Assembly: GCA_044892525.1 (NCBI GenBank)
Contig: CM097885.1
Span: 168,826,001 to 168,890,000 of the forward strand
Direction: 5' to 3'
DNA length: 64,000 nucleotides
Source of the DNA: Schmidtea polychroa
Taxonomy: Eukaryota
In this document: in pieces, positions 1 through 35,755 of the stretch
Numbering within the stretch: position 1 is the stretch's first letter
Layout: every line of letters starts with the position of its first letter
Program-made: the position numbers and the translations under genes
Notes under the pieces: model-generated
Seen by the model: only the letters and a program-made list of their open reading frames with translations
Databases searched by the model: none
What the model was told of the DNA's origin: nothing

Positions 1-1737
1 AAATACGATAGGCAAAATTTTATTTATTTTCCTATTTACGTTACATGTGCTACAAGCTGCACCCAAGTATTTCCCCGTAAAATGATCGTGATCTCTAACA
101 GGATCGACGATAGATTTCATACAAAGATAACAAACAGATGCACTAACAAATTGACGTTGTTCAATTTTTGTTAATTTCATCATAGGTTTCCTACCCATTT
201 TATAATAAAAAGGAAGAACCTTATTTAATGCTATATCCTCTATAGCACTTAAAAAACTCTCGACGCAATCTAAACCTATGAACTGCTGATAAGATTTAGA
301 TCCGTCAAAGTTATTTACAAGTAAAAGACCAGCAGATATTGGCATGTGTCGTTGGAAATGATCATTATCAGAAGGTAAAATAGCCTCAAAATCTGCATAA
401 ACTACAAAAGGAGGAGTTACTGTTTTCGACCAGTCAGTAAACTGTAAGAATTTATTTTGAGGGAAAGTATAAAGAGTTGTTCCTAATTGATTACGTTTGC
501 ATAATATTTCATGTTTTTCTAGTGCGTTTCTATTATTAAACCCATTCAAACACCGATGGCACCATAATGAACGTATGCGTGTAGGACAAGTAGTGTTGAT
601 ACCACAATTCAATAACCTATTTAAATTGCTTATAGCAACGTAATGGAAATTGTTCCCTTTATTTAATAATAGTAAATTAATTACAGTTCCATTTAAAACT
701 TTGGAACGATGTATAATGTCTAAATGTGGGTGTTTTAAAACGTAATTATCTATTAATTGTTTGTTATTGTCATAAGAAAAAACGTTAATTATTAAACCAG
801 GATTTTTGGCCTCGAATTTTCTAATATCTTTTAATTTCATGGGTAAGTCCAATGGATTATATATTAATTCAGATAAATTATAACTGGATGTCCTATTTCT
901 AGCATAACTACTAACCTCATCATATTTTAAAATAGCTAAAATGCTATATAAAAAACATGAATCATCGGTGTTTTTTATATTAATTAAACAATATTTATTT
1001 TTTAGATAAGTAGGTAGTTCAATGAAACTTCTACCACTTAATCTACTTAGCCTACTTATCTTTGTTATGGTGAAGTGAATTTCTGTTATTTTTTTTATGA
1101 TCCAGCTACTTCCTAACTCTGTGATATTACTTATTTTCTCGTTTAGTTCCCTAATGCCTTCGTCAAAAAATGATGCAGTTAAAGGCTTTGCATAATTTGA
1201 GATATTATTAACCTTTATTTCCCCGTCTTTTTCAAATTCGATTGTTATTCCGAATTGAATTTTGACGGAGCCTAATTCGTTAATAATATCTCGTAATTTT
1301 TTTATTAGTTGTTCAGGAAATATTATTTCTTTTATATTTAAGTCGCTTGTATTTAAGCTTAATATTTGATGGGTACCTCTTAGATCTTTTTGTATTATTG
1401 GAACATTTCCACCTATTTGTATTATATTTAATCCATCCCAAGAGTCAAGGGAAATATTATCTAATCCGACCTGGGATTCAACAACCAATCCATCATGGGA
1501 TTCGACAACCAATCCATCATTGGATTCCACAAAAGGCAATCCGACCTGGGATTCAAAAGAAGAAGTATCTAATTTAATTTTTTTATTTTTATTATTTTTT
1601 TCTATAGTTGAGGGTCTTTTAAAAACACTATCTTTTTTAAAATTAAACCTATCTAAATGATTTTTATGTTTATTATAAAAAACGCTATATGTTACGGGGT
1701 CACTAGTCTTACATACGGGACATATTTTAAAACACAT
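1..1737 (-). CDS. Second, inverted copy of the pPolB gene (N-terminal 579 codons; runs off the window start)
   Basis: Mirror of 4080-5816 (coordinate sum 5817: CAT 1735-1737 mirrors ATG 4080-4082; ORF 1347-1577+ translates identically to 4240-4470-). Confidence 0.9.
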   Translation of the reverse strand, partial: MCFKICPVCKTSDPVTYSVFYNKHKNHLDRFNFKKDSVFKRPSTIEKNNKNKKIKLDTSSFESQVGLPFVESNDGLVVESHDGLVVESQVGLDNISLDSWDGLNIIQIGGNVPIIQKDLRGTHQILSLNTSDLNIKEIIFPEQLIKKLRDIINELGSVKIQFGITIEFEKDGEIKVNNISNYAKPLTASFFDEGIRELNEKISNITELGSSWIIKKITEIHFTITKISRLSRLSGRSFIELPTYLKNKYCLINIKNTDDSCFLYSILAILKYDEVSSYARNRTSSYNLSELIYNPLDLPMKLKDIRKFEAKNPGLIINVFSYDNNKQLIDNYVLKHPHLDIIHRSKVLNGTVINLLLLNKGNNFHYVAISNLNRLLNCGINTTCPTRIRSLWCHRCLNGFNNRNALEKHEILCKRNQLGTTLYTFPQNKFLQFTDWSKTVTPPFVVYADFEAILPSDNDHFQRHMPISAGLLLVNNFDGSKSYQQFIGLDCVESFLSAIEDIALNKVLPFYYKMGRKPMMKLTKIEQRQFVSASVCYLCMKSIVDPVRDHDHFTGKYLGAACSTCNVNRKINKILPIVF

Positions 1738-2177
1738 TTTGACGCTAAAGTTGACTTATTTAACATTTTCATAATAATTTAATAAAAATAATGTGATGAA
1801 CCCACAAAGTAATATCATTTTTCATCAAATTGCAAAACAGTAATAACGTTTTCATAAAATTGTAACAAAGTAATAACATATTTCAGATAAATTTTCAACA
1901 GTTGTAAAATATTTAAGCAAATTGTAACAAGATTAGAAAATATTACAACAAAGTAGTAACATATTTCAGAAAATTTCAACAAATTTGTAAAATATTTATC
2001 AAATTGTAACTAAAATAATAAAAATATTGCAACAAAGTAATAAAATAATAATGGTAATTAAGACAAATCAATACATTATTTCGAAGACGGACAACAAATT
2101 AAAAAGAATATTGTAACTAAAATAATAAAAATATTGCAACAAAGTAATAAAATAATACAACATTTTAAACTCTAGAT

Positions 2178-2590
2178 CAATCCATTTTATAGAAAATTAA
2201 ATTTTATCTATATAATATATGAATAAATATCCAAGGAAATTACGTTAACGTATAATAAATACAAATTTATCGTAAAAACATGTGTGTATTACACACAAAA
2301 CAAGATACATAATTTCTAATCAATCCATTTTATAGAAAATTAAATTTTATCTATATATTATATGAATAAAATCCTAAGAAAATTACGTTAACTGTATGAA
2401 AAATACAAATTTATCATAAAAACATGTGTGTATTACACACAACATACGAGACATAATTTTTAATCAAGCTATTTTATAGAAAATTAAATTTTATCTATAT
2501 AATATATGAATAAAAATCCAAGAAAATTACGTTAACCGCGCGAAAAACTACAAATTTATTGTAAAAACATGTGTGCATTACACACAAAGC
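2178..2590 (+). repeat. Tandem ~143-bp repeat, 3 units (starts 2178, 2321, 2465); mirror copy at ~3370-3640 has only 2 units
   Basis: Unit CAATCCATTTTATAGAAAATTAAATTTTATCTATATAA...TTACGTTAAC...AAAACATGTGTGTATTACACACA seen three times on the left and twice on the right. Confidence 0.9.
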
Positions 2591-2774
2591 ATCAAACTGA
2601 AATTGTAATTGCGCCATGTTGTAGAGAATTAAATTCTGCCTATACATTGTTACACTTAAATCTCGATCAGACATGTGAAAAGAGACATAAAAGAGAAAGA
2701 ACAGTAGAGTAGTATGATGTGGGCCATCCAGACCAGGTCACCGCCAGGCCACATATACCCTCTCCCCCCCCCCG

Positions 2775-3186
2775 TGTGTAAAATAATGTTAATAATAATA
2801 TTTATACATCAGTAGATAGATCTTGCACTAAGCTTCAAAATAAGCTATCCAATAATAAATTCGGATAATGGGAACGATAACTTTGGGGCAAACGAAAACC
2901 AGGTCACCGCTGGACCACTAATAATTATATGACCTTGAAAATGATTTTTGGTTAAATGTTAATAACTTTGTTAATATTAATGATGATGATACCTTCTATG
3001 GATCAATCGAAAGGTCTTAGACCGAGCTTTAAGATGAGGTATCGTTTAATAATATTTGTTGGCGGGAACTCTGTACATTTAAATTTTAAAATATGACCTT
3101 GAAAAATTAAATGATCACTTAATTAAAACAAAAAATTAAATTAAAAAATGACCTTGACCTTTTATTTTAAAAAAAAAAATTTTTCC
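2775..3186. promoter_or_regulatory. Unique spacer between divergent pPolB copies, with three TGACCTTGA (nuclear-receptor NR5A/ERR-type) motifs
   Basis: TGACCTTGA at 2930-2938, 3094-3102 and 3149-3157 (the last extends to TGACCTTGACCT); ACCAGGTCACCGC at 2732-2744 and 2898-2910. Regulatory function is inferred only. Confidence 0.4.
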
Positions 3187-4079
3187 CGGGGGGGAGGGGG
3201 GGGTATATGTGGTCTGGAGGGGACATGGTCTGGATGGCCCACATCATACTACTCTACTGTTCTTTCTCTTTTATGTCTCTTTTCACATGTCTGATCGAGA
3301 TTTAAGTGTAACAATGTATAGGCAGAATTTAATTCTCTACAACATGGCGCAATTACAATTTCAGTTTGATGCTTTGTGTGTAATGCACACATGTTTTTAC
3401 AATAAATTTGTAGTTTTTCGCGCGGTTAACGTAATTTTCTTGGATTTTTATTCATATATTATATAGATAAAATTTAATTTTCTATAAAATGGATTGATTA
3501 GAAATTATGTATCTTGTTTTGTGTGTAATACACACATGTTTTTACGATAAATTTGTATTTATTATACGTTAACGTAATTTCCTTGGATATTTATTCATAT
3601 ATTATATAGATAAAATTTAATTTTCTATAAAATGGATTGATCTAGAGTTTAAAATGTTGTATTATTTTATTACTTTGTTGCAATATTTTTATTATTTTAG
3701 TTACAATATTCTTTTTAATTTGTTGTCCGTCTTCGAAATAATGTATTGATTTGTCTTAATTACCATTATTATTTTATTACTTTGTTGCAATATTTTTATT
3801 ATTTTAGTTACAATTTGATAAATATTTTACAAATTTGTTGAAATTTTCTGAAATATGTTACTACTTTGTTGTAATATTTTCTAATCTTGTTACAATTTGC
3901 TTAAATATTTTACAACTGTTGAAAATTTATCTGAAATATGTTATTACTTTGTTACAATTTTATGAAAACGTTATTACTGTTTTGCAATTTGATGAAAAAT
4001 GATATTACTTTGTGGGTTCATCACATTATTTTTATTAAATTATTATGAAAATGTTAAATAAGTCAACTTTAGCGTCAAA

Positions 4080-7000
4080 ATGTGTTTTAAAATATGTCCC
4101 GTATGTAAGACTAGTGACCCCGTAACATATAGCGTTTTTTATAATAAACATAAAAATCATTTAGATAGGTTTAATTTTAAAAAAGATAGTGTTTTTAAAA
4201 GACCCTCAACTATAGAAAAAAATAATAAAAATAAAAAAATTAAATTAGATACTTCTTCTTTTGAATCCCAGGTCGGATTGCCTTTTGTGGAATCCAATGA
4301 TGGATTGGTTGTCGAATCCCATGATGGATTGGTTGTTGAATCCCAGGTCGGATTAGATAATATTTCCCTTGACTCTTGGGATGGATTAAATATAATACAA
4401 ATAGGTGGAAATGTTCCAATAATACAAAAAGATCTAAGAGGTACCCATCAAATATTAAGCTTAAATACAAGCGACTTAAATATAAAAGAAATAATATTTC
4501 CTGAACAACTAATAAAAAAATTACGAGATATTATTAACGAATTAGGCTCCGTCAAAATTCAATTCGGAATAACAATCGAATTTGAAAAAGACGGGGAAAT
4601 AAAGGTTAATAATATCTCAAATTATGCAAAGCCTTTAACTGCATCATTTTTTGACGAAGGCATTAGGGAACTAAACGAGAAAATAAGTAATATCACAGAG
4701 TTAGGAAGTAGCTGGATCATAAAAAAAATAACAGAAATTCACTTCACCATAACAAAGATAAGTAGGCTAAGTAGATTAAGTGGTAGAAGTTTCATTGAAC
4801 TACCTACTTATCTAAAAAATAAATATTGTTTAATTAATATAAAAAACACCGATGATTCATGTTTTTTATATAGCATTTTAGCTATTTTAAAATATGATGA
4901 GGTTAGTAGTTATGCTAGAAATAGGACATCCAGTTATAATTTATCTGAATTAATATATAATCCATTGGACTTACCCATGAAATTAAAAGATATTAGAAAA
5001 TTCGAGGCCAAAAATCCTGGTTTAATAATTAACGTTTTTTCTTATGACAATAACAAACAATTAATAGATAATTACGTTTTAAAACACCCACATTTAGACA
5101 TTATACATCGTTCCAAAGTTTTAAATGGAACTGTAATTAATTTACTATTATTAAATAAAGGGAACAATTTCCATTACGTTGCTATAAGCAATTTAAATAG
5201 GTTATTGAATTGTGGTATCAACACTACTTGTCCTACACGCATACGTTCATTATGGTGCCATCGGTGTTTGAATGGGTTTAATAATAGAAACGCACTAGAA
5301 AAACATGAAATATTATGCAAACGTAATCAATTAGGAACAACTCTTTATACTTTCCCTCAAAATAAATTCTTACAGTTTACTGACTGGTCGAAAACAGTAA
5401 CTCCTCCTTTTGTAGTTTATGCAGATTTTGAGGCTATTTTACCTTCTGATAATGATCATTTCCAACGACACATGCCAATATCTGCTGGTCTTTTACTTGT
5501 AAATAACTTTGACGGATCTAAATCTTATCAGCAGTTCATAGGTTTAGATTGCGTCGAGAGTTTTTTAAGTGCTATAGAGGATATAGCATTAAATAAGGTT
5601 CTTCCTTTTTATTATAAAATGGGTAGGAAACCTATGATGAAATTAACAAAAATTGAACAACGTCAATTTGTTAGTGCATCTGTTTGTTATCTTTGTATGA
5701 AATCTATCGTCGATCCTGTTAGAGATCACGATCATTTTACGGGGAAATACTTGGGTGCAGCTTGTAGCACATGTAACGTAAATAGGAAAATAAATAAAAT
5801 TTTGCCTATCGTATTTCACAACTTGAAGGGATACGATATGCACCATATACTTAAATATGGATTAAATAAATTTAAAAATTGGAATTTAGGGTGCATCCCA
5901 ATAACTACGGAAAAATTTATATCTTTGATTGCTCATTTAGGTAAAATTAGCCTAAGATTCATTGATTTGTATCAATTTGTCAATGATTCTTTGGCTAAAG
6001 CAGTCAAAACTTTGAATTCTTTGCCTTTTACTAATTCTGCTTTTTCTGGCACCATAGTAAGTGAAAAAGGAATCTTCCCTTATAATTTCGCCACTTCTTT
6101 AGATATTCTCCAAACTACTTATGAATTACCACCAATCTGGGAGGGTGTCACTGAGCTTGAGTATGAAAAAGCTCAGGAGATTTGGGTAGAAACTAATTGC
6201 GTAACTTTATTAGATTATATGATGATCTACCTAAAACTTGATTGTTTTCTTTTGGCTGATTTCTTTCATCAGTTTCGGTTGAAATCCATTGCTCACAATA
6301 GATTGGAACCATTGAATTATTTCGGAATTCCAGGCATGTCTTGGTCTTCTGCATTAATGTCTTTAAATGAACCAATTGAACTCATAACTGAAAACGAAAT
6401 GTTTAGCTTTTATGAGGGTGGAATAAGAGGCGGTCTTACTTTTGTGAATAAGCATTACGTAAAAACCGACGAGAACACTGAGTTACTATATATAGATATT
6501 AATAATCTTTATGGCTGGGCTTTAAGTCAATCATTACCTTGTGGCGAATTTTGTTGGGTTCTTGATGGATTTGATAAAATAATGGATGAATGTAGGAATT
6601 TAAATCTTGAATCTTTGTCTTATGGATACACACTTGAAGTTGATCTTGTAATTCCTTCTGAGCTTCATGATAAGTTGGATGATTTCCCTGTAGCTGCTGA
6701 AAAAATGAAACCTGCTGGGTCTAAGGTTGAAAAATTATTATTAACTCATCTTCCAAAATCTAATTATGTTATTCATTGGAGATTATTAAAATTATATTTG
6801 GAACTTGGTGTTAAAGTAACACGTGTAAATAGGGGTGTAAGATTTAAGCAATCACCAATTTTTAAAAAATATATAGATACAAATACTGAATTAAGATCAA
6901 AAAGCGTAAATAGCTTAGATAAAAATTATTATAAATTGCTAAATAATAGTTTATACGGCAAAACAGTTGAAAATTTAAAGAGAAGAATGAATCTTCGTCT

Positions 7001-7847
7001 TTGTACAACTGCCGGTAAATTAGTTAAATATTCGTCAAAACCAACTTTTAAAAAATCTATTAAAATAGCAGATAATTTAATTGCAGCACTATTGAATTCA
7101 GATTCTATATGTTTAGATAGACCGAGTTACATTGGTCAATCTGTACTTGATCTATCTAAACTTAGAATGTATGAATTGCAATATAAGGATCTGGAATCAA
7201 TTCGCAATGAGTTTAATTGTAAAATTAATATCGTTGCAGGTGATACAGATTCTTTTTTCCTCGAAGTCATTAACTGCAAACTTGAGGTTCTTTTACCTGC
7301 AATGGTTCGAGATAATTTATTGGATACTTCCAATTACAATAGTTGTCATTCCTTATATAGTAAGAACCTTGATTCAGTCATTGGAAAGTTCAAAGACGAG
7401 AATAAAGGTCTTAAATATAAGGAGTGGGTTTTTCTTAGACCTAAATGTTATAGCTTGTTGAGTGATGAGGAAACAAAAAAGGCTAAAGGTGTAACATTGA
7501 AAGGTAGTGACATAAAACATCAGTCATACCTGGATTGTTATAACACTAACCAGATTTTTTCGGTTCCTCAGACTAAAATAACAAGCAAAAATCATCAAAT
7601 TTTTACAATTAAAAACACAAAAATAGCACTAACTAACAAAGATGACAAAAGGGTTTGGGTGGGGAAAAATACTAGTCTTGCATATGGGCATGTAAGATTA
7701 AGTGAATTAAATATTGGAGAAAATGTTGGAGAAATTGTTGCAGAAAATGTTGGAGAAAATGATGGAGAAGATGAGGAAGAATTAAATGAAGATTTTGGAG
7801 AAGATGACATCGATATCGATGACGTTATTTTGTCCGATGAGGACTAA
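4080..7847 (+). CDS. Protein-primed family B DNA polymerase (Polinton/Maverick type) with C2HC zinc finger, HNH/EndoVII insertion and acidic tail, 1255 aa
   Basis: ExoI YADFE (D449/E451), ExoII HNLKGYD, ExoIII YLKLD, motif A DINNLYG (D806), long TPR1-like insert, motif B KLLNNSLYGK (K952), TPR2-like insert, motif C AGDTDS (D1055/D1057), RPKCY, KAKGV; intronless open frame. Confidence 0.95.
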   Translation: MCFKICPVCKTSDPVTYSVFYNKHKNHLDRFNFKKDSVFKRPSTIEKNNKNKKIKLDTSSFESQVGLPFVESNDGLVVESHDGLVVESQVGLDNISLDSWDGLNIIQIGGNVPIIQKDLRGTHQILSLNTSDLNIKEIIFPEQLIKKLRDIINELGSVKIQFGITIEFEKDGEIKVNNISNYAKPLTASFFDEGIRELNEKISNITELGSSWIIKKITEIHFTITKISRLSRLSGRSFIELPTYLKNKYCLINIKNTDDSCFLYSILAILKYDEVSSYARNRTSSYNLSELIYNPLDLPMKLKDIRKFEAKNPGLIINVFSYDNNKQLIDNYVLKHPHLDIIHRSKVLNGTVINLLLLNKGNNFHYVAISNLNRLLNCGINTTCPTRIRSLWCHRCLNGFNNRNALEKHEILCKRNQLGTTLYTFPQNKFLQFTDWSKTVTPPFVVYADFEAILPSDNDHFQRHMPISAGLLLVNNFDGSKSYQQFIGLDCVESFLSAIEDIALNKVLPFYYKMGRKPMMKLTKIEQRQFVSASVCYLCMKSIVDPVRDHDHFTGKYLGAACSTCNVNRKINKILPIVFHNLKGYDMHHILKYGLNKFKNWNLGCIPITTEKFISLIAHLGKISLRFIDLYQFVNDSLAKAVKTLNSLPFTNSAFSGTIVSEKGIFPYNFATSLDILQTTYELPPIWEGVTELEYEKAQEIWVETNCVTLLDYMMIYLKLDCFLLADFFHQFRLKSIAHNRLEPLNYFGIPGMSWSSALMSLNEPIELITENEMFSFYEGGIRGGLTFVNKHYVKTDENTELLYIDINNLYGWALSQSLPCGEFCWVLDGFDKIMDECRNLNLESLSYGYTLEVDLVIPSELHDKLDDFPVAAEKMKPAGSKVEKLLLTHLPKSNYVIHWRLLKLYLELGVKVTRVNRGVRFKQSPIFKKYIDTNTELRSKSVNSLDKNYYKLLNNSLYGKTVENLKRRMNLRLCTTAGKLVKYSSKPTFKKSIKIADNLIAALLNSDSICLDRPSYIGQSVLDLSKLRMYELQYKDLESIRNEFNCKINIVAGDTDSFFLEVINCKLEVLLPAMVRDNLLDTSNYNSCHSLYSKNLDSVIGKFKDENKGLKYKEWVFLRPKCYSLLSDEETKKAKGVTLKGSDIKHQSYLDCYNTNQIFSVPQTKITSKNHQIFTIKNTKIALTNKDDKRVWVGKNTSLAYGHVRLSELNIGENVGEIVAENVGENDGEDEEELNEDFGEDDIDIDDVILSDED

Positions 7848-8012
7848 TTTTATTGAATAAATTTTATATCTTTACATTTGTTATTTGGTAAATTTTTATG
7901 TTTGTTATGTGTCTAGTTCATTTTTATGTGTTTAGTTAATGTTTATATGTTTTGTTATGTGTCTAGTTATTTTTATGTGTTGTATAGTATTTGGTTGATA
8001 TATTATTAATAT

Positions 8013-8014
8013 TA

Positions 8015-8064
<50 letters not shown>
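8013..8064 (+). repeat. (ATT)n microsatellite
   Basis: Direct observation. Confidence 0.95.
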
Positions 8065-8065
8065 T

Positions 8066-8960
8066 CATAAAAATTTTCATTAAAAATTATCTTAAAAATT
8101 ATTCTATTAAAATTTCCATTAAAAATTACCATTGAAAATTATTCATAAAAATTTCTATTAAAAATTACTTAAAAAATAATTCATTAAAATTTCCATTAAA
8201 AAATTTCAATTCTCAAACACCTTCTATTTTTGTTAATAAATTTAAAAATCTTACTTTAATTTACTTATTACATTACTTTAATTTACTTATTTAAAAATTA
8301 TTACTTTAATTTTAAAATTTTTGACCTTAATTAACTTTAATTTAATTTTTAGAACCATAATTTACTTTAATTTTAAAATTTTTGACCATTATTTACTGTA
8401 ATTTAATTTTTAGAACCATAATTTACTTTAATTTTAAAATTTTTGACCATTATTTACTGTAATTTAATTTTTAGAACCATTATTTACTGTAATTTAAAAT
8501 ATTTGGACCATTATTTACTTTAATTTAATTTTTTAGAACCATTATTTACTTTAATTTAAAAATTTGGATCATAATTTACTTTAATTTAAATTTTAAGAAC
8601 CATAATTTACTTTAATTTAAAAATTTGGACCATAATTTACTGTAATTTAATTTTTTAGAACCATTATTTACTTTAATTGAAAAATCTTAGCCCATAATTT
8701 ACTTATTTAGACCATAATTTACTTTATTTCAAAAATAAATCTGAACCTTGATTTACTTAAATTTTTAGACCCATCATTTACTTTATTTTTAAATTTTAGA
8801 CCCATAATTTGCTTTATTTTAAAAATTTACTATGCGTTTTTTAATGTAAACCACCTTTTCTATTGAAATTCTCATGACCAAGAAGATCCCCTCACTATAG
8901 TGTGAAAAATCCATGCTTTTTATTGAAGACTACCTTTTTCTATTGAAATTCTCAGGACCA
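8066..8960 (+). repeat. Subterminal degenerate tandem arrays (~13 bp, then alternating ~30-bp GACCATAATTTACTTTAATTT units, then a ~45-bp duplication)
   Basis: Repeated ACCAT(A/T)ATTTACT(T/G)TAATTT units at 8310-8820; TTTTCTATTGAAATTCTCA(T/G)GACCAAG twice at ~8855 and ~8935. Confidence 0.85.
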
Positions 8961-10371
8961 AGGAGACCCACCCAAATAATATTTATCCTTGGCTTGTTTA
9001 TTGAAAAAAAAAAAAAAAAAAATTTGTATTTAAAATCCCAGAAAACATTGGGCATTACGGCAACAATTATGTAATCAAAAAATGTCTACGGAAAAAGTTA
9101 TGCAATCAAAAGTTTGCAACATTTTTTACCCCCCCCCCTATTGCTGCCGTAAGCCACTAACTACCTACTTTTATATATAATTGTGGTAACAAAACCTTCT
9201 TGGGTCTACTAGTGGGTTTTGCTGCATACTCAAAACAGAGGAAGATATTTAATCAGCAAATGTGATGACACAGCACAAAATTCGTGCAGGACTGCTCTAT
9301 CAAGTTCAACTGAAACTAATATATACCCAATGTTTAAGAAAAAACAGTTTCTAAGTAAAATTTACTGTATCATAAAAACTAGACCTAAACAACATTTTTA
9401 ATTTCATATTCTTTTTCAGCATAGCAAAATTAGTTATAATTGACTGATTTCATCACCGATACATTTTGGCTGTTTACCAGTGTAATTAAACCCACTTTAA
9501 ATAAATATATTTTTGAAATATCGCATTTATGAAATTAAATACCAATTTTAAAAGAAGTGCTTAAAGAAATTAGACAAATTATGCATCTTTCAATAAGAAA
9601 AACTGAATTTTTTGATTACACGTAAATAAAAGCTCATGTTGTCAATTAGAAACAACTTATTATAAAATTCTAATTTAATATAGTGAGTTAGAAGGGCTGG
9701 AGAGATCTAGTGTAGAAATTTGCTACAAATGTATATTTTAAAGGGATGAAAATAATACAAGTTTTGTCAACTAAAAAGATTGTTGAATGCCATCAATAAT
9801 TTACCAAAAGAGTTACAGAGATGAAAAAAAAATAACTTAAGAAATTAGTGATTAATTTTTAGATTGCATCAATAAGATTGAGACTGTGTAAAATTCTAAG
9901 TAATCACGGAAATTTGTATAATTGTTAAGTATTAGTGTGTATAAATAAAGTGTGCTAAAAATTGTGTCGTATTTTAATTTTTAAAAAACCTAAGAATTCA
10001 AATATTATTTAAACAAAAAATAATATATGTCTAAGTAGTGATAATTATTAAAAGTATTACTATATTAATTACAATCATACAAAATTTATTTCATTTATTA
10101 CATTATTCATGATTTTTAACGAAATTTCTTACTGTGCTAAAAATAGTGTCGGGCAGTATATATAATTGAAATATAATAATTTTTAATAAAATTGCAATTC
10201 AAGTATGAATGTGGTATGTTGATATTTGGTTGAAATTAAAATTTATAAAAAGAAAATGTCCCAAGAATATTTGTTTATATAAGCAGATTTAATGATATAT
10301 AATTTTGGATTTATTTAGTCTTAGTAATATATTTGATGACAGAAGAATTGAATGTTATAGCTTCTAACAAT

Positions 10372-10580
10372 ATGGATATGACCTGGATATGACATGGATA
10401 TGACATGATATGACATGGATATGACATGGATATGACATGGATATGACATGGATATGACATGGATATGACATGGATATGACATGGATATGACATGGATATG
10501 ACATGGATATGACATGGATATGACATGGATATGACATGAATATGACATGAATATGACATGGATATGACATGGATATGACA
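10372..10580 (+). repeat. 11-bp minisatellite (CATGGATATGA)n, ~19 units
   Basis: Direct observation; explains the spurious 11-aa periodic ORFs. Confidence 0.95.
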
Positions 10581-19867: not shown

Positions 19868-22040
19868 TTCTCTGAGGATGAGTTTTGTCAACATTTTCAT
19901 CAGTCATTATTTCCAGCTTAAATTTAATAAAAATATAAATAGAAAATAAAATAAATAGAATTAAATTATAATAAAAAAATATTTCAGTTGGTTGTAAAGA
20001 TAAAGTAAATTCACTTTTTTATTTAAATTAATATAAGCTTGTTTTTGCAATATTTTTTCGCGTCGTAAACCTTCATTGTGCTCATACCAACTATTAGACA
20101 TTCTTTATAAAATTATTCAATGGCAAATAAATTTTTTAAACAAACAATTAATTAGGTTGTCATGGAATTCGAAATGTAAAACAAATATTTGGAGAATTCA
20201 ACATTAAATATATTGCTATATTGTTTTTATCTAATTTATAAAATACTCAAAGAGCATAAAATGTCTTTATATGTCTGTAAATATATATTTTATCGTTTAT
20301 TGTAAAATAAGGTGACCAATATAGTGACAGAAAGTTTTGGCATAGAAATAATTCCTGTTGGAGTATGAAACATGAGAATTATAACTCTTTTATCTAATAA
20401 AATAATTATATGCTAATATTTATTATGTAATAATTATTTTCGATTAAAAGTGTTAATTTTAAAATTGAATATCATGCTAGTGTCAGTTGATTTATTTTAT
20501 ATAGGTCTTTAGGATATTTATGAATCTAACTACTCGTGAACTTTATCAAAGGAATGACTCAACGCAAATAATTTTTATTAATATAACACATCACAATCTT
20601 TCGTATTCTGTCACTACAATTGAGATGAATTTATTTGACATAAAGGTTGACTAAGCAATTTTGATACTACTCCAAAAAACTCTTACTCTTTCACTTTCTT
20701 TTCCGCGTTGATCTCTGTTTCTTCATTTCTTTTACTATTTTTGACCAGAATGGCGATTTGGAGATTTTGTATAGCGCTTATACTCCTCAGATTCATTTTT
20801 TTGTTCTTCGGAAGCCAAAAAACTTGTGTGTGCATTTCTTTTGGTACCTTTATATTGTGCTTTGTATGTCAAGTGTGTGCGTTTGTTTTGTATTTTGTGT
20901 GCTCTTCTGCATTTCCTTTCGAAATGGTGTCAAAGGAAGTTTACGAAATATTTATTTGTTTTCTTCATTGTTAATTTATCGAAGTTTATCACTATTTCTC
21001 TGGATTTAAATCTTATTCAATTATTATAGGAAGTTTTCTTTTTATTTCAACCAATGTGCGGATTATCTAGTCAGAAACGGCCTGCTAAAATTAAAGAAAA
21101 CTACGCGGTTTTAACAAGTAAGGCAATTAAAAATGGTTGTAAAGGTAAACTGCATCCATCTGAAACTGCTTGCAAAGAAGGAAAAACATTTTTTATCCGA
21201 ATTGGGATCACAAGTCTGATACAATTGAAAAACTTTTCATCATACCACATTTCCAATATTTAGGGAAACAACTTCTTGGAAGAAATCGCGACAATAATAA
21301 CTCTTAAACCGGTTTTCACATTGTCAGAGATGGACTCTTGGTTTTAGGACATCTATTATGGTCTTAAAACTAATAAATAATAATTTTTTAAGTAATTAAC
21401 TACAAATAGTGATAGTTGAATAGTTGGTTAAAAACTAAGATTAGAATTAATTTGTTTTACCGTGATGATAATACAAAAAAACTAGCATCAAATTGAATTA
21501 AAATTAAAAAAATACCGAATAGACTTCCAAAATAAAGAAGAAATGTAAAAAATAATTAAAAAACGAAAAGTAAAATGTTTAAAAAGATGCATGGTTCGAA
21601 ATCAAACATAAACATAAAAAATAGACATTACATGTGAAACCGGTTCAAAATCATGACGATACCAAATGATAGGAAATAAAATAAAATATGCCTAACCATT
21701 TTTTTAGTATGATTTATAAATCATAATTCTTTCCCAGAACAATACGTATACAAATAAAGATTTCAAATGAGTTTAACACTTTGACGGCCAATTTGATATG
21801 GTGGTCACTGGAGGTGCACGTGTTAGAACATATGTGGATTTGTTAACTTTCGTCTGAATATTTTAGAATTTTTATACGTTTTCAATATGCAATTTCAGTT
21901 TATGTACCGTATCTGCATTTTCAATTAAATCTTAAGTAATTTCAAGTGAACACGAATGGTCAATGTACACCTCTGAAATGCACTTACAAGTCACTTGTAA
22001 TTGACCACCAGTTACAACTCATAGATAAAAAAACAATAAA

Positions 22041-25000
22041 ATGCAATCGAGTAAATATGATCCAACCAATTTAATAAGTAGTCTTTCTTTAGAATATAAA
22101 AATGCTAGAGAGAAAAAAATAAACAATAAAATCACAAAATACAACAATAAACAAAAGACAATTCGAATATTTATTTCATCAACTTTTCGGGATTTTCACA
22201 ACGAAAGAAATTTACTGGTCACGAAAGTTTTCCCTAGACTTCGTGAGTGGTGCGCAAATCACGGCTTGTATTTGGTTGAATGTGATTTACGATGGGGCAT
22301 TCCGGCAGATTCGTCGAGAGAAGAAACTTTAATGACATGTTTTGACGAAATAGAGAAAGGAAAACAAGAATGTAATGAAATGAATTTCTTTTTGGGTTTG
22401 ATTGGAGACAGATACGGTTGGATTCCAAGTGAAGCCGAAATAACAGAGAATATTAGAAAAAGGTAATTTTTGTGAAATGTTTAAGATTATATTAAATATT
22501 TATTAAATTATTAAGTTACAATTACTGTTGAAATGAAAATTGTATGATACATATTATCTTTAATTAAATTATTTTGTAATTTTTTGAATTACCGTTTTTT
22601 CCTCCAGGTACTGCGTTATCTACACAAAAAATATCAAAATACACAGAGGAAAAATTGTATTTCAAAGCGAACGTTATTTCATTGTAATTGTTATGCTTTT
22701 CTTATAGTAATGGAAATTTACAACAATTCTTCACATTTTAAAAATCTGGTAAACTTTCTTTTCGTCAAATGGAAATTTAAATTATTTCCTAGTGAAAATA
22801 ATTATTCAATTAAAAAAATACATGTTTTACCACGTAATTGAAGCATTTCCATATTCTACGATTTCAATTAGTAATACCTTTAAATATATCAGTTTTTAAT
22901 GCAACATATGAAACATTAACATTTAGTGTTCTAACCTAATTCAACATACTAGCTAGTTTATTTTAAGCTTGTTATTATTATAAAATAAACGAATAAAACG
23001 ACTAGAAGGGTCATGGAGCCGTTAAATGGAACTAACCTCTAGAATCAAAGACATTTTAGAAGATTTATTGAATATTAAATTACTGAATATGAAATTCTTT
23101 TTCAAAATCGCTAAAAAATAAATAAATACAAAACAATATTTAATTGGGTTAAAATTGTTTATTTTCCCAAATACAATTGTATTCTTCTACAATTTCTTGG
23201 TCTTCAAGCATCTAGGAACCTCCTGGTGATTTCAGGAAACCGTTTCTGACACATGTTGTTGTAACTGCACCCCAGCTATCAATGATCCAACTGCATATGT
23301 CACTCTACGGTAGCTATTCATTTTCCCAGTCTTAGTGTATTCTTTAACACCACTCATCATCCAATCCTCCCATTTTGCCCGCTACTTGGTTTTAAACGAA
23401 TTATTTATTGTTAGATCAAGAAGTTGAACTAGTTTCGCCAATCTACTTAGAATTATGGCTTGTTTAGAAAATTTCATGTTGGTTTCTATTACGTCTGGTA
23501 TTGTATGTGCAAAACATGAGTCCATTATCAACAATGATTTTGAATTAAAAAAAGCTCCTTTTTGTTTACTCCAAACGTTTTCCACTAAAACTTTCATCAC
23601 CTTGTGGACCACGAGTCGTGGTTGACCCACCTTTTATCATCAGCGGTAACTATAATATCATTAGGAAATTATTATAAGAACTTTTTTTCCAATTTCACCA
23701 CTGATTATTTTTTCCATCGAATTTATTAAAAAGAGAGCTTGAAGCCTATAAATCAGAAATATATCGATGTTTTTTGATACTCACGAATTTTCGGCACTGC
23801 CTTTTTCAAGTGAAAGAGTACATCCAACCAATCTTCAACAAAGTTTTTATCTCTGAAAGCTTCAAAAACATCGGCCAACAGAAAATTATCCAGCTTAAGG
23901 TACACTTGCTAATAATCTAACAGCGTCTCACAGTTGTAATGGTGCCATATTTGGTTGAAATGTAATTATTCTGTTTGATTAATTTCTGGTGAAATTCTGG
24001 TGAAATACCTCCATTGATGTAGTAATATCATAAGAAAAAATGTCATTACTAGTTATTAACTGTCAACCAAAAACTTTGAAGTAACTGGAAGACTTGGTAA
24101 ACATTTTGATAAATTTGCAATACTGTTATTTAAAAATCGCAAGGAATCAATGAATCTAATTCTTCTTCAATCTGTTGTCGCTTTAAGTGTGAGAAATCTT
24201 TCTTTTTATTAGAGAATAACAATTAAATTCCCCGACCTGAAAAATATTTTTCAGACTGAGATGGAAATTACAATCAGAGAGCTAATAATGCCGCTGAATG
24301 TGAGTAAGAGTACTATTTATAGATTACTCAGTGAAAGTGGCATAAGAAAATTATGCTCTCGCTTTGTATAACGTTTTGAACTACTGAAATGCAGTGCTAC
24401 TAAGAGAATTTTCAGATTTTGGATGATATTGGAGAGGATATTTTAGGATAATATTATTACCATGGATGAGACACTACTTTCGCTTTATGTTCCACAATTT
24501 AAACGGGAATCTACAGTGTGGAAACTACTCCTGAAATCTGTTCTTTAAAGATGAGGTCATCAACAAATCACGGAAAGGCGCTCATATTGACTGTGTTTTC
24601 GGATGTCACTGGCATTATTCTAGCTGATTTTGCCCAAAATGGTGTTCAAATTAACAAATCCTGCTACTTCGAACTTGCACAGGAAGCATGGAAACTCCGA
24701 AAGAAAGGTCGGGTGTGTGGGCTTTATTATTTACACGATTACCCTCCCATTCATACAAATTGAAATTAGATTTAACACATTTATTTAATTAAATTTAAAA
24801 GATCATTTATTTAAATTTAAATTTTATATTAAAATAAAATTCTGAGAGTGGAAAATATTTTTCATTTCTATTTTATTGTAAAGCTATCATAATTATATAT
24901 GCATGTTAAAATTAGGGCTAATTTAATGACTTGCGCTGAAATGAAGTTCTATGCATATCTACTGCTATCTGTACCAAAAATCAATATGATATTCATAGCA

Positions 25001-27282
25001 CGTCAAGTGAGTAGTTCTATCTGCAAGTTAGATATTATAGAACGCTCGACTTCCTAATATAATTTAAAATAACATGTCAACTCGCTGCAAATTACTTTGG
25101 GTGGTTTTGCTATTCGAGCATTTTAATTAACTCCTGGTGCAAGTGGTTAATAACTAGGCTTTATCAATTACATTTTAGGAATATTTGATAAGAATACTTG
25201 TATTTTATTTTAAATCTAAGGTACAAATGGATAGATGGAAGCTCAGTTACTTTAATGGAGATACTTCATGGAATGATTCGAACTCTAACTCCAAATGGTC
25301 TTCTTATGGTAAGATTGCCAGATTTTATTAAAGATCTTCCAGATAATTTGAGATCTGAATTTCTGGAAACGGATCCTATGGCAGCATCAAATTTAAATAT
25401 CTTTAAAGAATTTTTAAAAAATACTTTTGAGAAGCATAATTCTTTTCATTTTTATAGTGCCTCTTATGACGGAGTTGTCTATGATAAATTCATTGATAAA
25501 AAAAGAGTTCTTGTAAAATTGGATGACTTTGAAAATCAAATTGAAAAACATTTTATCAAATGCATTAAAGAAAATTTTTTACTATTTAAAGATGAAAAAG
25601 CTGACAACATTGATGAAGTTCATGAAGTTATGGTTGAATGCCTTACAAATCAAAATCCAATACCCCATGAGACTTTTCAAAAGCTTTTTGATACTCTTAA
25701 AAGTAAGCTGTCTAAAAAAGAAAGAAGTTCAAATTCTATTTTTATGCTTTCCGGAGAAGCTGGATCTGGAAAATCTACAACCTTAGCACACTGTGCAAAA
25801 ATATTGAAGGATTTTCCGAATTGTGATTCGTTTTTTCATAGTTTTTCCTGCACTTCTAACAGTATGTATAACACGACCATTTGTGAAAGACTTTATAGAT
25901 TTCTCTCAACTGACAATTTAAATCCTAATAAATCTTATTTAGAGAAAAAGAATAAGATTAGTTATTTATTAGAAAACGGACCGAAACGTCATGACAAAGA
26001 TGTGTTTTACGTTTTCTTGGATGGTATTGATGAAATGTCAAGTGATCAAACATTAGGGTGGCTTCCGAAATTAACTTCTGAACGTATTGTTATAATAATT
26101 AGTTGTTTACTAGATACCTCTCCGTCATCTTTCTATTCCAATTTACACAATTCCGACAAGTCTATTTCGGAATTATCAATACAAGTAATGCCAAAGACTC
26201 AATTATGTGAAATGGTAAAGAATTATCTCGACAGTTTCGGTAAAAAGCTCGACGTTGACCAACTCAATTGCTTAATGAGCTTCAAAAATTCAAACAATCC
26301 ATTGTGGTTGATTTCAGCTTGTGAAGAATTAAGAATTCATGGAGACTACTTTTCTCTGACAAAATTTATTTTGTCTCTTCCGTCTACGATCTGTGAACTG
26401 AATAAAATGGTTATTAAAAGACTGATAAATCAAGATTCAAAAAATATCTTGAAAACATTTTTACAACTTTTGGTCATTTCTAAGAGTGGATTGTGGGAAA
26501 GTTTAATAAAGAATATGTTGGCAATGAAGTTAGACAGTGCTCAACCTGTAAGCCATTCATTATGGACAGAAATTGTATGCCATTTGAAAGGATTCCTACT
26601 GATACAATCCATGTCTTTGCCGTTAATCAAATTTCGACATAGGGTCATGAAGGCGGCTATTGAAGAAGAGTTGGCGATGAGTGATAAATTCCAATTAAAT
26701 CTCCATTACGAAATGTCGGTGTTCTTTGAAAATATAATTGGAAATTCTGGAGATTTGTTTCTAGCAGATTACATTTATCATTTAATCAAGTCGAATTCTC
26801 GAAATCGTTTGATTAAATTCATTCGAACTCGCAAATCGTGGAGAATCTTTAAAAACTCATTTATTCGAGGAAAAATTGTTTCAAGTATGCGTTGCATGAA
26901 TTGCGTTGTGAATATACCTTCACAGAAGTCTCAAGAATTAATGATGTGTCAAACGTGTAAGTTCGTTTCTGGAGAATTAGCGGAGCATGCAATGAATAAG
27001 AACAGTTGTTATTTCTGTGGAACATTTGTATTTAATAATAATGGTGATGTTGCTAAACTTTATCCGTGCCAATTTCACAGGCACCCAATTGTGAGTTTAA
27101 TAAAATGTAGTCTATGCGAAAATCCAATAGGAGGAAAAGGAGAGAGCCTCAAAGTTTGTCAGATGTGTAAATTGCAAAATCTTTCTGGGAGCTGTGGGGT
27201 AATAGTTAAGGAAGAGGACATTTTGTTTCATCAACAACTTGAGTATAGTCATTCAGTTTATCGCATTGAATCGTTAATTTAA
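22041..27282 (+). CDS. DUF4062-like / STAND (NACHT-like) NTPase / PHF5-like zinc-knot protein, paralog A; exons 22041-22462 and 25221-27282, 827 aa
   Basis: RIFISSTFRDF...ECDLRWG...FLGLIGDRYGW (DUF4062-like, as in the TEP1/NWD/NPHP3 family); Walker A GEAGSGKST; Walker B VFLDGIDE; GT-AG phase-2 intron rejoins in frame (422+2062 nt = 828 codons). Confidence 0.85.
23200..23950 (-). mobile_element. Degraded pogo/Tigger-like DDE transposase fragment in the paralog A intron
   Basis: SLLIMDSCFAH...LVQLLDLTINNSFKTK resembles the DDE_1 LLxxDxxxxH...QPLD...FK motifs; multiple stops. Boundaries approximate. Confidence 0.65.
24200..24763 (+). mobile_element. Degraded mariner (DD34D-type) transposase fragment in the paralog A intron
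   Basis: HTH region VSKSTIYRLL, IITMDET, LTVFSDVTGIILADF, LHDYPPIHT; frameshifts and stops. Confidence 0.75.
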
Positions 27283-33117: not shown

Positions 33118-35755
33118 ATGTACAGAAAACACGTTAGTTTAATCGACAAAAATGACCCAATATCTGCAGATCATATCAAATCATCCCTTTGGGACCAAAT
33201 TGAATTTGAATATTCAAAAGCTTTGATGAATAATCGCTATCGTGACTCGTCTGTTGATAAAGATTTAAAAGTAATTCGAATTTTTATTTCTTCGACATTC
33301 AAAGATTTCTACAATGAAAGAGATATATTGGTAAGAAATGTGTTTCCAAAATTACGGAAATGGTGTGAAGAACAAGGATTGTTTCTTGTGGAGTGTGATT
33401 TAAGATGGGGTGTACCTGTTGATGCTACAAATTTGGAAGCTGTTTCATATTGCTTGGATGAAATTGAAAAATCAAGAGAAGAAACAAATAATAATAACTT
33501 TTTCCTTTGTTTAATTGGAGAAAGATTTGGATGGGTACCATCGGAAGAAACGCTGTTGGAAAAATTGAAACTCAAGTAAAAATTTATTTATTATAAATAA
33601 TTGTATTATAGAAAAATATATTTAAAGAATTTCACTGAATATTAACTTAGTAACTAATGTAAATATTTTGATTAATTACAATTATTAAAACAATAAAAAT
33701 ATTTTCAGATATGATTTTATCAAAGACAGTTCAGTAACTTTAATGGAAATTGTTCATGGTGTGTTGAGAAGTGGAACAGAAAATAGTCTTTTTATGATTC
33801 GATCTAAAAATATTCTGGAAAATATGCCGAAATCGCATTTAAAATATTTTGAAGAAAGTGATAAATTATTAAAGTCTAATGTTAACGAACAGAAAGAATT
33901 TATTAAAAAGCATTTTTCAAAATCTGGTTGTGTAAAGGATTATTCTATTAATTATGAATCAACTGTTGTTGATCCAATATCTGGAAAAGAAAGAATTCAA
34001 TTTTCAGATTTTGATGAATTTTCGAAAATTGTAGAGGATTATTTTAAATCTCAGATTTTAGATTTTAAAGTCAAGCATAAATTGTCACTTGCAGTGGAAG
34101 ATCAAAATGAGGATATGATTCATAAATCTCATTTAGTTTCTATAAATAAAACCTCTTTAAAACGAATGTCGTACATTGAATTTTTAAGCAATCAAATAAA
34201 AAATTCAAATTTGGAAAACGAAAGGAATCCCATTATTATTATAACCGGTGAGGCAGGTTCCGGCAAATCAACAATAATTTCTCACATTATTGAATATTAT
34301 TCAAATCTTGAAAACGAAAATGTATTTTATCATTTTTGTGGTGCCTCGAATACGAGTCACAGTCAATTGAGTATTCTTAAAAGGTTAGAAAATTATTTGA
34401 AATTAGTTCTTAATCTTGATGTTTCAATTTCTAACGAAGAAAATCCTAATTTAAGTAAGTCATTGGAAAACCTTTCCGAACCAAAACTGAAAATTTTCAT
34501 CGACGCATTAGATGAATTATGGGACTTGGATATTGTGAACCAATTTCCGAAATTTACTTCAAAAAACATTCAACTTATAGTTTCATGTTTATGTGACACA
34601 GGTATAGATTCTTTTTACTCAAAATTTATGACTCAGGACTTTGTCTATATTCAGTTGCCCATTGAAAAAATGAATACTATTCAATTGATAGATATAACAA
34701 ATAAATATTTATACAACTTTGGTAAAAAATTAGATTCTCTCCAATTAGATAAATTGTTGAGCTTTGAAAATTCTCACAATCCTTTATGGCTTCTTTCAGC
34801 TTGTGAAGAATTACGAATGCATGGAGACTATTCCAGTCTTACAAAATTAATAACTTCACTTCCTCCTTCGATAATAGATTTAAATAGAATGATTATTAAA
34901 AGATTGTCTAACCAAGATGTGACAAACATCCTCAAAACGGTTTTACAATTATTAGTAATTTCAAGAGCCGGAATATGGGAAAGTCTGATTAAAGATATTC
35001 TAGCTGAAATTTTAAATTTTTCTGAGCCAATAAGCCATTCTACTTGGTCACACATTATGTGGCAATTAAAGGGATTTCTGTTAATCCAGTCGATTCCTTT
35101 ACCGTTAATAAAAATTCGTCATCGGGTAATGAAAGAATCCATTGAAGAAGAATTATCAATGGATGAAGAGTATAAAATAACACTTCATCATAAGATTTCT
35201 ATATATTTAGAAAAACTATACGATAACGAGAGTGATGTATTTCTTTCAGATTACATGTATCACCTTGTGAAATCAAATGCACGAAATCGAATGATAGATT
35301 TTATGAGAAGTAGGAAATCCTGGAAAGTTTTGAAACAGCCTTTTGTGCGCTCAAGAATCATGCTGAGTACGAGATGCATCAATCCAAAATTGACAGACAA
35401 ACAAAGCGCGTTGATGATGTGTATTCGATGTGCAAACAAATCTGGTGAATTGTCCATTTTTTCGATCAATAGGAACAGTTGCTTTTTTTGTGGCAACCTT
35501 GTTGCAGCTAATAACAACGATGAGAATAAACTGTTTCCATGTCAATTTCATAAAAATCCCAATCCACAGTTGGGGAAATGCACTCTATGCAACTCGATCG
35601 TACCGTCAAAACAAGGAGAACCGGTGAAAGCGTGTCAAATGTGCAGTTTAAACAACCCAAGAAACTGTGGAATCATTGTCAATGAAAAAGACATTCTATA
35701 TCGCCAACAGCTGGGATTCAGCAAAGCAGTTTACAGAATTGAATCGATAATATAA
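33118..35755 (+). CDS. DUF4062-like / STAND (NACHT-like) NTPase / PHF5-like zinc-knot protein, paralog B; exons 33118-33575 and 33709-35755, 834 aa
   Basis: Same motifs as paralog A (RIFISSTFKDF, GEAGSGKST, IFIDALDE, NPLWLLSACEELRMHGD); 133-nt phase-2 GT-AG intron at the same position; 458+2047 nt = 835 codons. Confidence 0.88.

Follow-up and report, generated by a model that had tools for sequence, protein, structure and literature searches.

The window analysed here is a 64,000-nt stretch of the Schmidtea polychroa genome (C1:168826001-168890000, where C1 is contig CM097885.1 of the 781-Mb assembly GCA_044892525.1). Its left end holds most of a palindromic element related to the Polintons. 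Coordinates are window positions, with negative numbers for DNA upstream of the window. The element extends from -3359 to 9169 (12,529 bp; C1:168822641-168835169) and is flanked by TTTATA target-site duplications (TSDs). Its only long open reading frames (ORFs) are two 1255-codon pPolB frames, one on each arm. The features within the window are as follows.

1 to 2735: left arm, in-window part; the arm runs on to a terminus at -3359 (C1:168822641), with TTTATA before it
1 to 1737, - strand: 5' part of the left pPolB copy, 1255 codons with the stop at -2030; no substitution relative to the right copy over codons 5-1255
2327 to 2470: extra 144-bp repeat unit, left arm only
2703 to 3258: central module of type A, 556 bp, with a Polinton-type end AGTAGAGTAGTATGAT facing outward on either side; about 330 genome-wide, almost never free-standing
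2736 to 3225: non-mirrored loop, 490 bp, whose edges still pair imperfectly
3226 to 9169: right arm
4080 to 7847, + strand: right pPolB frame, 1255 amino acids (aa), with a phi29-like exonuclease/polymerase core
4091 to 4092, + strand: junction of a missing 714-bp segment, with the same loss on both arms
4437 to 4760, + strand: predicted little-finger/PAD-like domain (middling structure match, Z 7.8, root-mean-square deviation (rmsd) 2.4, 90 aligned)
4800 to 5201, + strand: predicted OTU-like protease domain with invariant Cys and His (Z 7.2, rmsd 3.1, 103 aligned)
5673 to 5780, + strand: endonuclease VII/HNH-like zinc-finger insertion, below the Pfam cut-off
8251 to 8822: subterminal tandem repeats of about 30/61 bp, resembling those of the parent family and the gene-less palindromes described below
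9140 to 9169, - strand: right terminus, 5'-AGTAGGTAGTTAGTGG on the - strand
9170 to 9175, + strand: TSD TTTATA, 6 bp

An earlier, sequence-only reading of the window had taken 1-2735 to be the reverse complement of 3226-5816, and no substitution is found between the two segments; the 144-bp unit is an indel absent from that reading. It had also predicted where the mirror image should end. In the upstream DNA (C1:168816001-168826000), the mirror pPolB stop lies at exactly -2030, as predicted, and the mirror terminus, expected at about -3352, is found as AGTAGGTAG at -3359, preceded by the predicted 6-bp TSD, TTTATA, matching 9170-9175. The proposal of a self-complementary element of about 12.5 kb agrees with the length found and with arms of 6095 and 5944 bp. 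Over the whole element, the arms are 2 substitutions and 4 indels apart, the latter affecting a G-run (11 nt), a T-run (1 nt), and an ATT run (3 nt), with the 144-bp unit as the fourth. The inverted repeat of about 5.9 kb makes up 95% of the element. The claim that there is no other gene also holds, with no ORF above 130 aa besides the two pPolB frames and no match in the element by tblastn with integrase, ATPase, capsid, protease, PZ, and TBP queries; the left arm stays mirrored to its terminus and has no integrase or capsid match.

Both pPolB frames are open, and all the motifs of the exonuclease and the polymerase are retained: YADFE (5418), FHNLKGYD (5814), YLKLDC (6228), YIDINNLY (6489), KLLNNSLYGK (6933), and GDTDS (7239). 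A structure model of residues 101-1227 (pLDDT 90.5) has phi29 polymerase as its best structural match (E 3.5e-19; Z 19.6, rmsd 3.4, 524 aligned). A direct Pfam scan of the frame gave no PolB match, and a PDB sequence search gave no match; its homologues, the closest at 55-63% identity, carry PF03175. As judged from the modelled protein, the element has the pPolB gene typical of Polintons. The N-terminal part is predicted to consist of the little-finger/PAD-like and OTU-like domains, on structural matches (Z 7-8) that are middling but consistent. We take the PAD fold to be linked to the terminal-protein part of pPolB. These predicted domains fit the layout of terminal protein plus vOTU cited in the accessible text of PMC12721341. 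The weak endonuclease VII match, at aa 532-567, resembles the HNH insert reported in the accessible part of Jeong et al. (10.1101/2023.08.22.554363).

Many family members have a 714-bp segment between codons 4 and 5 that is absent from both arms here. The segment contains three GT..AG intron-like stretches (44, 46, and 204 nt) and the first ~34 main-exon codons, and we predict that it includes a spliced leader of three mini-exons. The frame in the window element starts at an upstream in-frame ATG, and about 90 predicted N-terminal codons are gone. The genes had been described as intact, which stands for the open frames and catalytic motifs but must be qualified because the segment with the predicted leader is missing on both arms. 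The element may supply its own polymerase, as had been proposed, but the predicted leader is missing here and the frames are broken in most examined copies; the polymerase can probably also come in trans. Among 46 loci, 19 retain the segment on each arm, 14 have lost it from both, and 13 were not typable on one or both arms. In none of the 46 loci (with these 13 untypable) were the two arms of one element found in discordant states.

Exact matches to the 30-nt terminus number 139 + 139 across the genome. Pairing by eye the 96 matches listed on C1 gave 40 pairs that face inward (80 matches). We examined 39 same-ended insertions, made up of 36 of the 40 C1 pairs and 3 from other contigs; 3 duplicate other loci. 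Exact 6-bp TSDs are present at 37 of the 39. Two mirrored pPolB copies are found in 34, another 4 are gene-less palindromes, and the remaining one is without most of one arm. None of the 39 elements has a match to ATPase, capsid, protease, PZ, or TBP, and the integrase query, which detects the parent integrase at 70%, gave a single weak match (23% identity) in a nested locus. Unpaired ends have a mirror within 10 kb in 8 of 15 cases. The sizes of 32 fold-back elements range from 6.9 to 16.3 kb, with a median of 14.4 kb.

Further loci were found by way of the centre. Mirrored polymerase pairs are present at 17 of 20 of these, and 6 of the 17 belong to a second polymerase lineage of 52% identity with the same centre type. 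Two complete second-lineage copies, of 13.0 and 14.5 kb, have TSDs and AGTAG ends of their own, and 38 of 40 second-lineage polymerase matches sit in 19 divergent pairs. The breaks in the second-lineage polymerase fit predicted introns in the one copy inspected. We counted 329 forward and 330 reverse type-A centre ends flanked by arms, at loci most of which were not inspected individually, and we estimate that the genome holds a few hundred insertions of the mirrored polymerase type (~330 centres). In a polymerase tree, 30 fold-back copies group apart from 6 parent copies; the support labels are unreliable after re-rooting, and no order of events is claimed. The window element had been read as a defective derivative. 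Its structure recurs at dozens of independent insertion sites, and the reading is therefore amended to a high-copy family with at least two polymerase lineages rather than a single derivative. No mirrored polymerase was seen at 100 related metagenome or viral-contig loci, of which only 25 have at least 3 kb upstream and whose short-read assemblies may collapse arms; an initial viral scan also gave no match.

Full-length Polintons with matching termini, which the sequence-only reading had suggested looking for as helpers, are present in the genome, and 8 full-gene copies were inspected. Alongside polymerase and integrase, these contain genes for protease, ATPase, PZ, the major capsid, and two minor capsids, as well as a TBP-like gene. 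The capsid and PZ genes are presumed to be such from gene order and motifs, as Pfam gave no capsid match. A minor-capsid query finds at least 119 copies at 99-100%, and four parent copies with both ends and TSDs in view measure 16.8-17.9 kb. One parent terminus is identical to that of the window element at 29 of 30 nt. Positions 223-4825 of the arm (arm coordinates) match the parent polymerase end at 89-91%, and the parent and fold-back polymerases are 96.4-96.7% identical over aa 231-1255; the arm's upstream region and the centre are not derived from the parent family. From these matches, the 17-kb Polinton family is the probable parent and helper, and both ends of the element evidently come from the same parental end, inverted. 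With no integrase in cis and a full-gene family with matching ends in the genome, the element is probably helper dependent. Other integrase-bearing families with AGTAG ends are also present.

The integrase gene of the parent family contains stop codons. These fall in a GT..AG segment of 42 nt that interrupts the TDLG/KEFYN motif and is present in 12 of 12 loci checked, and the gene is therefore predicted to be spliced and was not taken as dead. At the same position, other families have a GT..AG segment of 75-84 nt (loci L189, L206-L221, and L226-L245). Full-length Polintons carry the short TBP-like gene at, for instance, L055:2762-3226 and L226:6211-6687 (PF00352, E 5e-15 and 3e-16). One parent copy, which has itself inserted into subterminal repeats at a fold-back-type end, contains an additional ORF of 360 aa (L122:8553-9635) with a RING finger at its N-terminus. 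The first helper candidate, at C2:101.93 Mb, has ends AGTAGGGTATTG and was too distant as a parent at 61-64% polymerase identity; the integrase of its family could still serve the fold-back elements. A polymerase-less copy at C1:4.72 Mb had suggested an obligate bipartite system, which we rejected as a requirement, since polymerase is present in 8 further members of that family.

Palindromes of the opposite arm, with the integrase/ATPase/minor-capsid side mirrored and no polymerase, were found at three loci chosen for inverted capsid matches: C3:102798046-102812921 (L241-L242), C1:216068162-216085594 (L243-L244), and C2:165.604-165.614 Mb (L245). Both ends and 6-bp TSDs are visible at two of the three. 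Since such palindromes exist, fold-back would occur on either arm. Gene-less giant palindromes of 14-22 kb with the same kind of ends were seen among L186-L205 (C1:0.7-54 Mb) and at C1:64.93, 154.05, 164.62, and 170.25 Mb; when 10 pairs were sampled from a terminus that has at least 817 matches, 8 proved to be such palindromes. A distant Polinton family at C3:134.882-134.912 Mb (L059-L061) has two copies, 92-95% alike, arranged as an inverted dimer.

How alike are the two arms, and when did they become so? The arms were compared in 24 elements with two full arms, with duplicates and one nested locus left out. In 20 of the 24, an arm's own partner is strictly its nearest relative, and the median number of differences is 1.5 within an element versus 34 between elements. 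Private substitutions are found on both arms in 65 cases and on one arm in 34. A slippery A-run is equal in length on both arms in 31 of 32 elements, and frame-breaking slips are mirrored too. Element-private codon variants that are mirrored comprise 31 synonymous and 31 nonsynonymous changes, while one-arm variants comprise 3 and 29 (Fisher p=8.5e-5; p=0.004 without the three biggest contributors). For 56 of the 62 mirrored variants, there is no matching 15-mer in 7 parent copies. If the copying had followed insertion, mirrored and one-arm variants would both be expected to be neutral, and the two classes are observed to be unlike. The arms were likely equalised before insertion. Among shorter fold-backs, 4 of 7 junctions have a microhomology of 4-8 nt.

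The type-A module at the centre of the element starts and ends with the outward-facing AGTAGAGTAGTATGAT, and a second centre type uses AGTAGGTAG[AT]TAG ends. By their sequence, both are Polinton-type ends: the first apparently forms the outer end of the element at C1:30.94 Mb and is similar to ends seen in other full-length families, and the second forms the outer end in at least 817 other termini. The window element had been described as two copies of one Polinton end, which stands for the mirrored polymerase end but is amended in that the spacer itself is built of Polinton-type end sequences. In 24 of 26 elements, the arms are free of mismatches over the 60 nt that lie outside the inner ends, and in 22 of 26, a mismatch occurs within the first 10-36 nt inside them. 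The two polymerase lineages have the promoter region and centre in common at 85-98%, while the polymerases themselves can be aligned only patchily. With search patterns that were not identical, there are 3 type-A end matches not flanked by arms (2 in a mirrored arm variant and 1 as another element's outer end) versus ~330 arm-flanked pairs. Centre length ranges from 0.26 to 2.8 kb. At L133-L135, L138, and L143, the module is tandemly amplified in units of ~500-600 bp, up to five, and at C1:197.69-197.71 Mb, the centre ends occur in the order + + - -, suggesting a palindrome nested or mirrored within another. A model in which a half unit, consisting of an arm and the centre cut at the inner end, is the obligatory insertion form was rejected because no half unit was found.

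We consider it probable that the element is a copy-back (snap-back) Polinton derivative that copies itself as a hairpin and is inserted with a borrowed integrase. A resident 17-kb Polinton would have had its polymerase end doubled in mirror image, with a module of Polinton-type end sequence in between. In an extrachromosomal phase, strand displacement primed by terminal protein at either end would give a strand that is self-complementary over about 6 kb. Once past the loop, its 3' end could pair with its own first arm and copy it, in a self-primed copy-back of the nascent strand, or repair could take place on the long hairpin stem. The second arm would then be a fresh copy of the first, with the imperfect inner ends, the likely fold-back point, remaining mismatched. 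Copying round the hairpin would give a duplex palindrome, to be inserted with a 6-bp duplication by a helper integrase, probably that of the full-length family. New shorter fold-backs at microhomologies of 4-8 nt would fit the same step. We infer the extrachromosomal phase, the fold-back step, and the borrowed integrase from integrated sequences. The mechanism would extend to a whole genome two existing models: the racket model of a single-stranded Polinton replication intermediate, a proposal from sequence analysis (accessible text of PMC4196379), and panhandle homology restoration in adenovirus and PRD1, proposed in the accessible text of PMC11886824, where direct evidence is said to be lacking.

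A more elaborate possibility, which we put forward only tentatively, is a class of self-replicating hairpin replicons within a split, segmented Polinton system. A persistent palindromic platform, consisting of the promoter region and the end-derived centre, would have taken polymerase arms from two 52%-alike lineages and kept these arms under selection. The system would be segmented and multi-tiered, with polymerase and integrase/capsid genes on separate palindromes in addition to hundreds of gene-less ones.

Several observations weigh against the copy-back mechanism. The evidence consists of integrated copies only, and no extrachromosomal form, RNA, or protein was observed. The main frame is unbroken on both arms in just 6 of 35 elements and on one arm in 5. 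Two of the 24 elements have discordant arms, with 20 and 53 differences. The centre is flipped between the duplicated loci C1:235.97 and 236.36 Mb, so arms apparently interact after insertion, and the mirror continues into flanking DNA at 2 of 39 loci (C1:9.09-9.13, including 9.12, and C1:42.58 Mb). These two loci have an inverted-triplication-like layout, either a real rearrangement or an assembly effect. Ten of 36 elements have no detectable pair of inner ends, and 7 that were examined among them are without paired inner ends or any module, yet have TSDs. Half-length units ending at inner ends were not found as insertions. The three duplicated loci discussed next provide just 14 variable columns. 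Sex-chromosome palindromes have arms that are kept alike by gene conversion, and the palindromes here might have arisen once or a few times and moved by helper enzymes, with chromosomal gene conversion rather than replicative fold-back making the arms identical and the synonymous excess coming from selection on source copies. The centre inversion, the mirrored flanks at 2 of 39 loci, and the fully matched inner ends of 4 of 26 elements would agree with this. We nevertheless regard it as unlikely. At the duplicated loci, none of the 14 variable columns is mirrored within one duplicate, compared with 10 that are single-arm. One-arm variants look unselected, are C>T-rich (19 of 32), and persist, as do one-arm insertions (C26 locus), whereas the mirrored variants are selected. 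Mismatches just inside the inner ends survive beside perfect arms.

The polymerase genes could instead now be passengers of a fully non-autonomous satellite that, like the gene-less palindromes, obtains all enzymes from a helper. No unbroken main frame remains in 24 of the 35 elements (including 4 gene-less and 2 half-length ones), the leader-less subtype seen in the window has spread to 14 of 46 loci, and gene-less palindromes are 8 of the 10 sampled elements with related ends. Against this, codon variants common to several elements are synonymous in 94 cases and not in 45, when 20-26% would be expected to be synonymous; 27 synonymous versus 17 other changes remain among shared variants absent from 6 parent copies; and the second lineage keeps its 52%-identical polymerase in the same architecture. 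We think a passenger role very unlikely. An assembly or polishing artefact, from fold-back reads or collapsed arms, is hardly credible. Contigs of four sequencing runs cover the stretch, and none spans arm, loop, and arm; the mirrored flanks at the 2 loci could themselves be artefacts. However, the left and right flanks differ and exact 6-bp TSDs are present at 37 of 39 loci, element-specific variants with a selection signature lie on both arms, and the window copy has arm-specific indels.

The copy-back element shares several properties with Polintons/Mavericks as described in the accessible parts of Jeong et al. (10.1101/2023.08.22.554363) and PMC8097293: a pPolB with predicted PAD-like, OTU-like, and HNH/EndoVII-like domains, AGT-type ends, a 6-bp TSD, a typical size of 13-16 kb, and derivation from a resident family. 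It differs in having no integrase, ATPase, protease, or major and minor capsid genes. Polintons in those descriptions have terminal inverted repeats (TIRs) of 100-1500 bp around a unique gene block, whereas this element has ~5.9-kb arms and two polymerase genes, and intact vertebrate elements are intronless, whereas the polymerase and integrase genes in this genome have predicted introns. The copy-back (snap-back) defective genomes of RNA viruses, in the part of that literature consulted, resemble it in having both ends from one parental end, inverted, microhomology at several junctions, and probable dependence on a helper, judged by gene content. The size overlap of fold-back and parent elements is loose (6.9-16.3 kb versus 16.8-17.9 kb). 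Unlike those genomes, the element is DNA, is integrated with TSDs and inherited, has a polymerase under purifying selection, and persists as families. In adenovirus and PRD1 end repair (accessible text of PMC11886824), an inverted repeat likewise lets a displaced strand restore or copy an end, but in the present case the panhandle would span the entire genome, with a multi-copy transposon as the result. Linear pPolB plasmids (invertrons) are stable extrachromosomal linear DNAs with terminal proteins, and the copies seen here are all integrated. The gene-less giant palindromic Polinton satellites have the same ends, mirror architecture, and similar size, some with a type-B centre, but differ from the fold-back family in being without polymerase. 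Foldback transposons and miniature inverted-repeat transposable elements also have long inverted repeats, non-autonomous mobilisation, and TSDs; the present element differs from them in its Polinton ends, its replicative polymerase, and arms concerted by element-private mutation. In its proposed mode of action the element resembles a copy-back defective genome, and its origin is a Polinton, but it falls outside the Polintons in integrase, morphogenesis genes, and TIR size. We found no description of a two-polymerase palindromic Polinton in the full-text literature searched, a scope that excludes subscription papers, Repbase, and supplements; the accessible text of the Halocafeteria preprint describes only short terminal palindromes.

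The hundreds of inserted palindromes, with private, selected mutations on both arms, are a genomic record of arm copying, probably before integration. If this copying took place during replication, they would be rare genomic evidence of Polinton self-copying, and of DNA copy-back genomes becoming heritable transposons that keep their polymerase. The model predicts a 6-7-kb hairpin with terminal protein. Surveys described in the accessible parts of PMC8097293 and Jeong et al. (10.1101/2023.08.22.554363) require integrase and polymerase together, or five core genes together, and would therefore miss such elements by design. Long near-perfect palindromes at such a copy number are a likely source of host rearrangement.

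Around the element, a terminal fragment of an older related element, 76% alike, lies at -8007 to -7330, 4 kb to the left. A tandem 12-bp repeat (GATATGACATGG type) occupies 10372-10580, about 1.2 kb to the right of the insertion. Further right, at 22029-27282 and 33118-35755, are two similar tandem host genes with P-loop NTPase exons, which we take to be NACHT/DUF4062-like.

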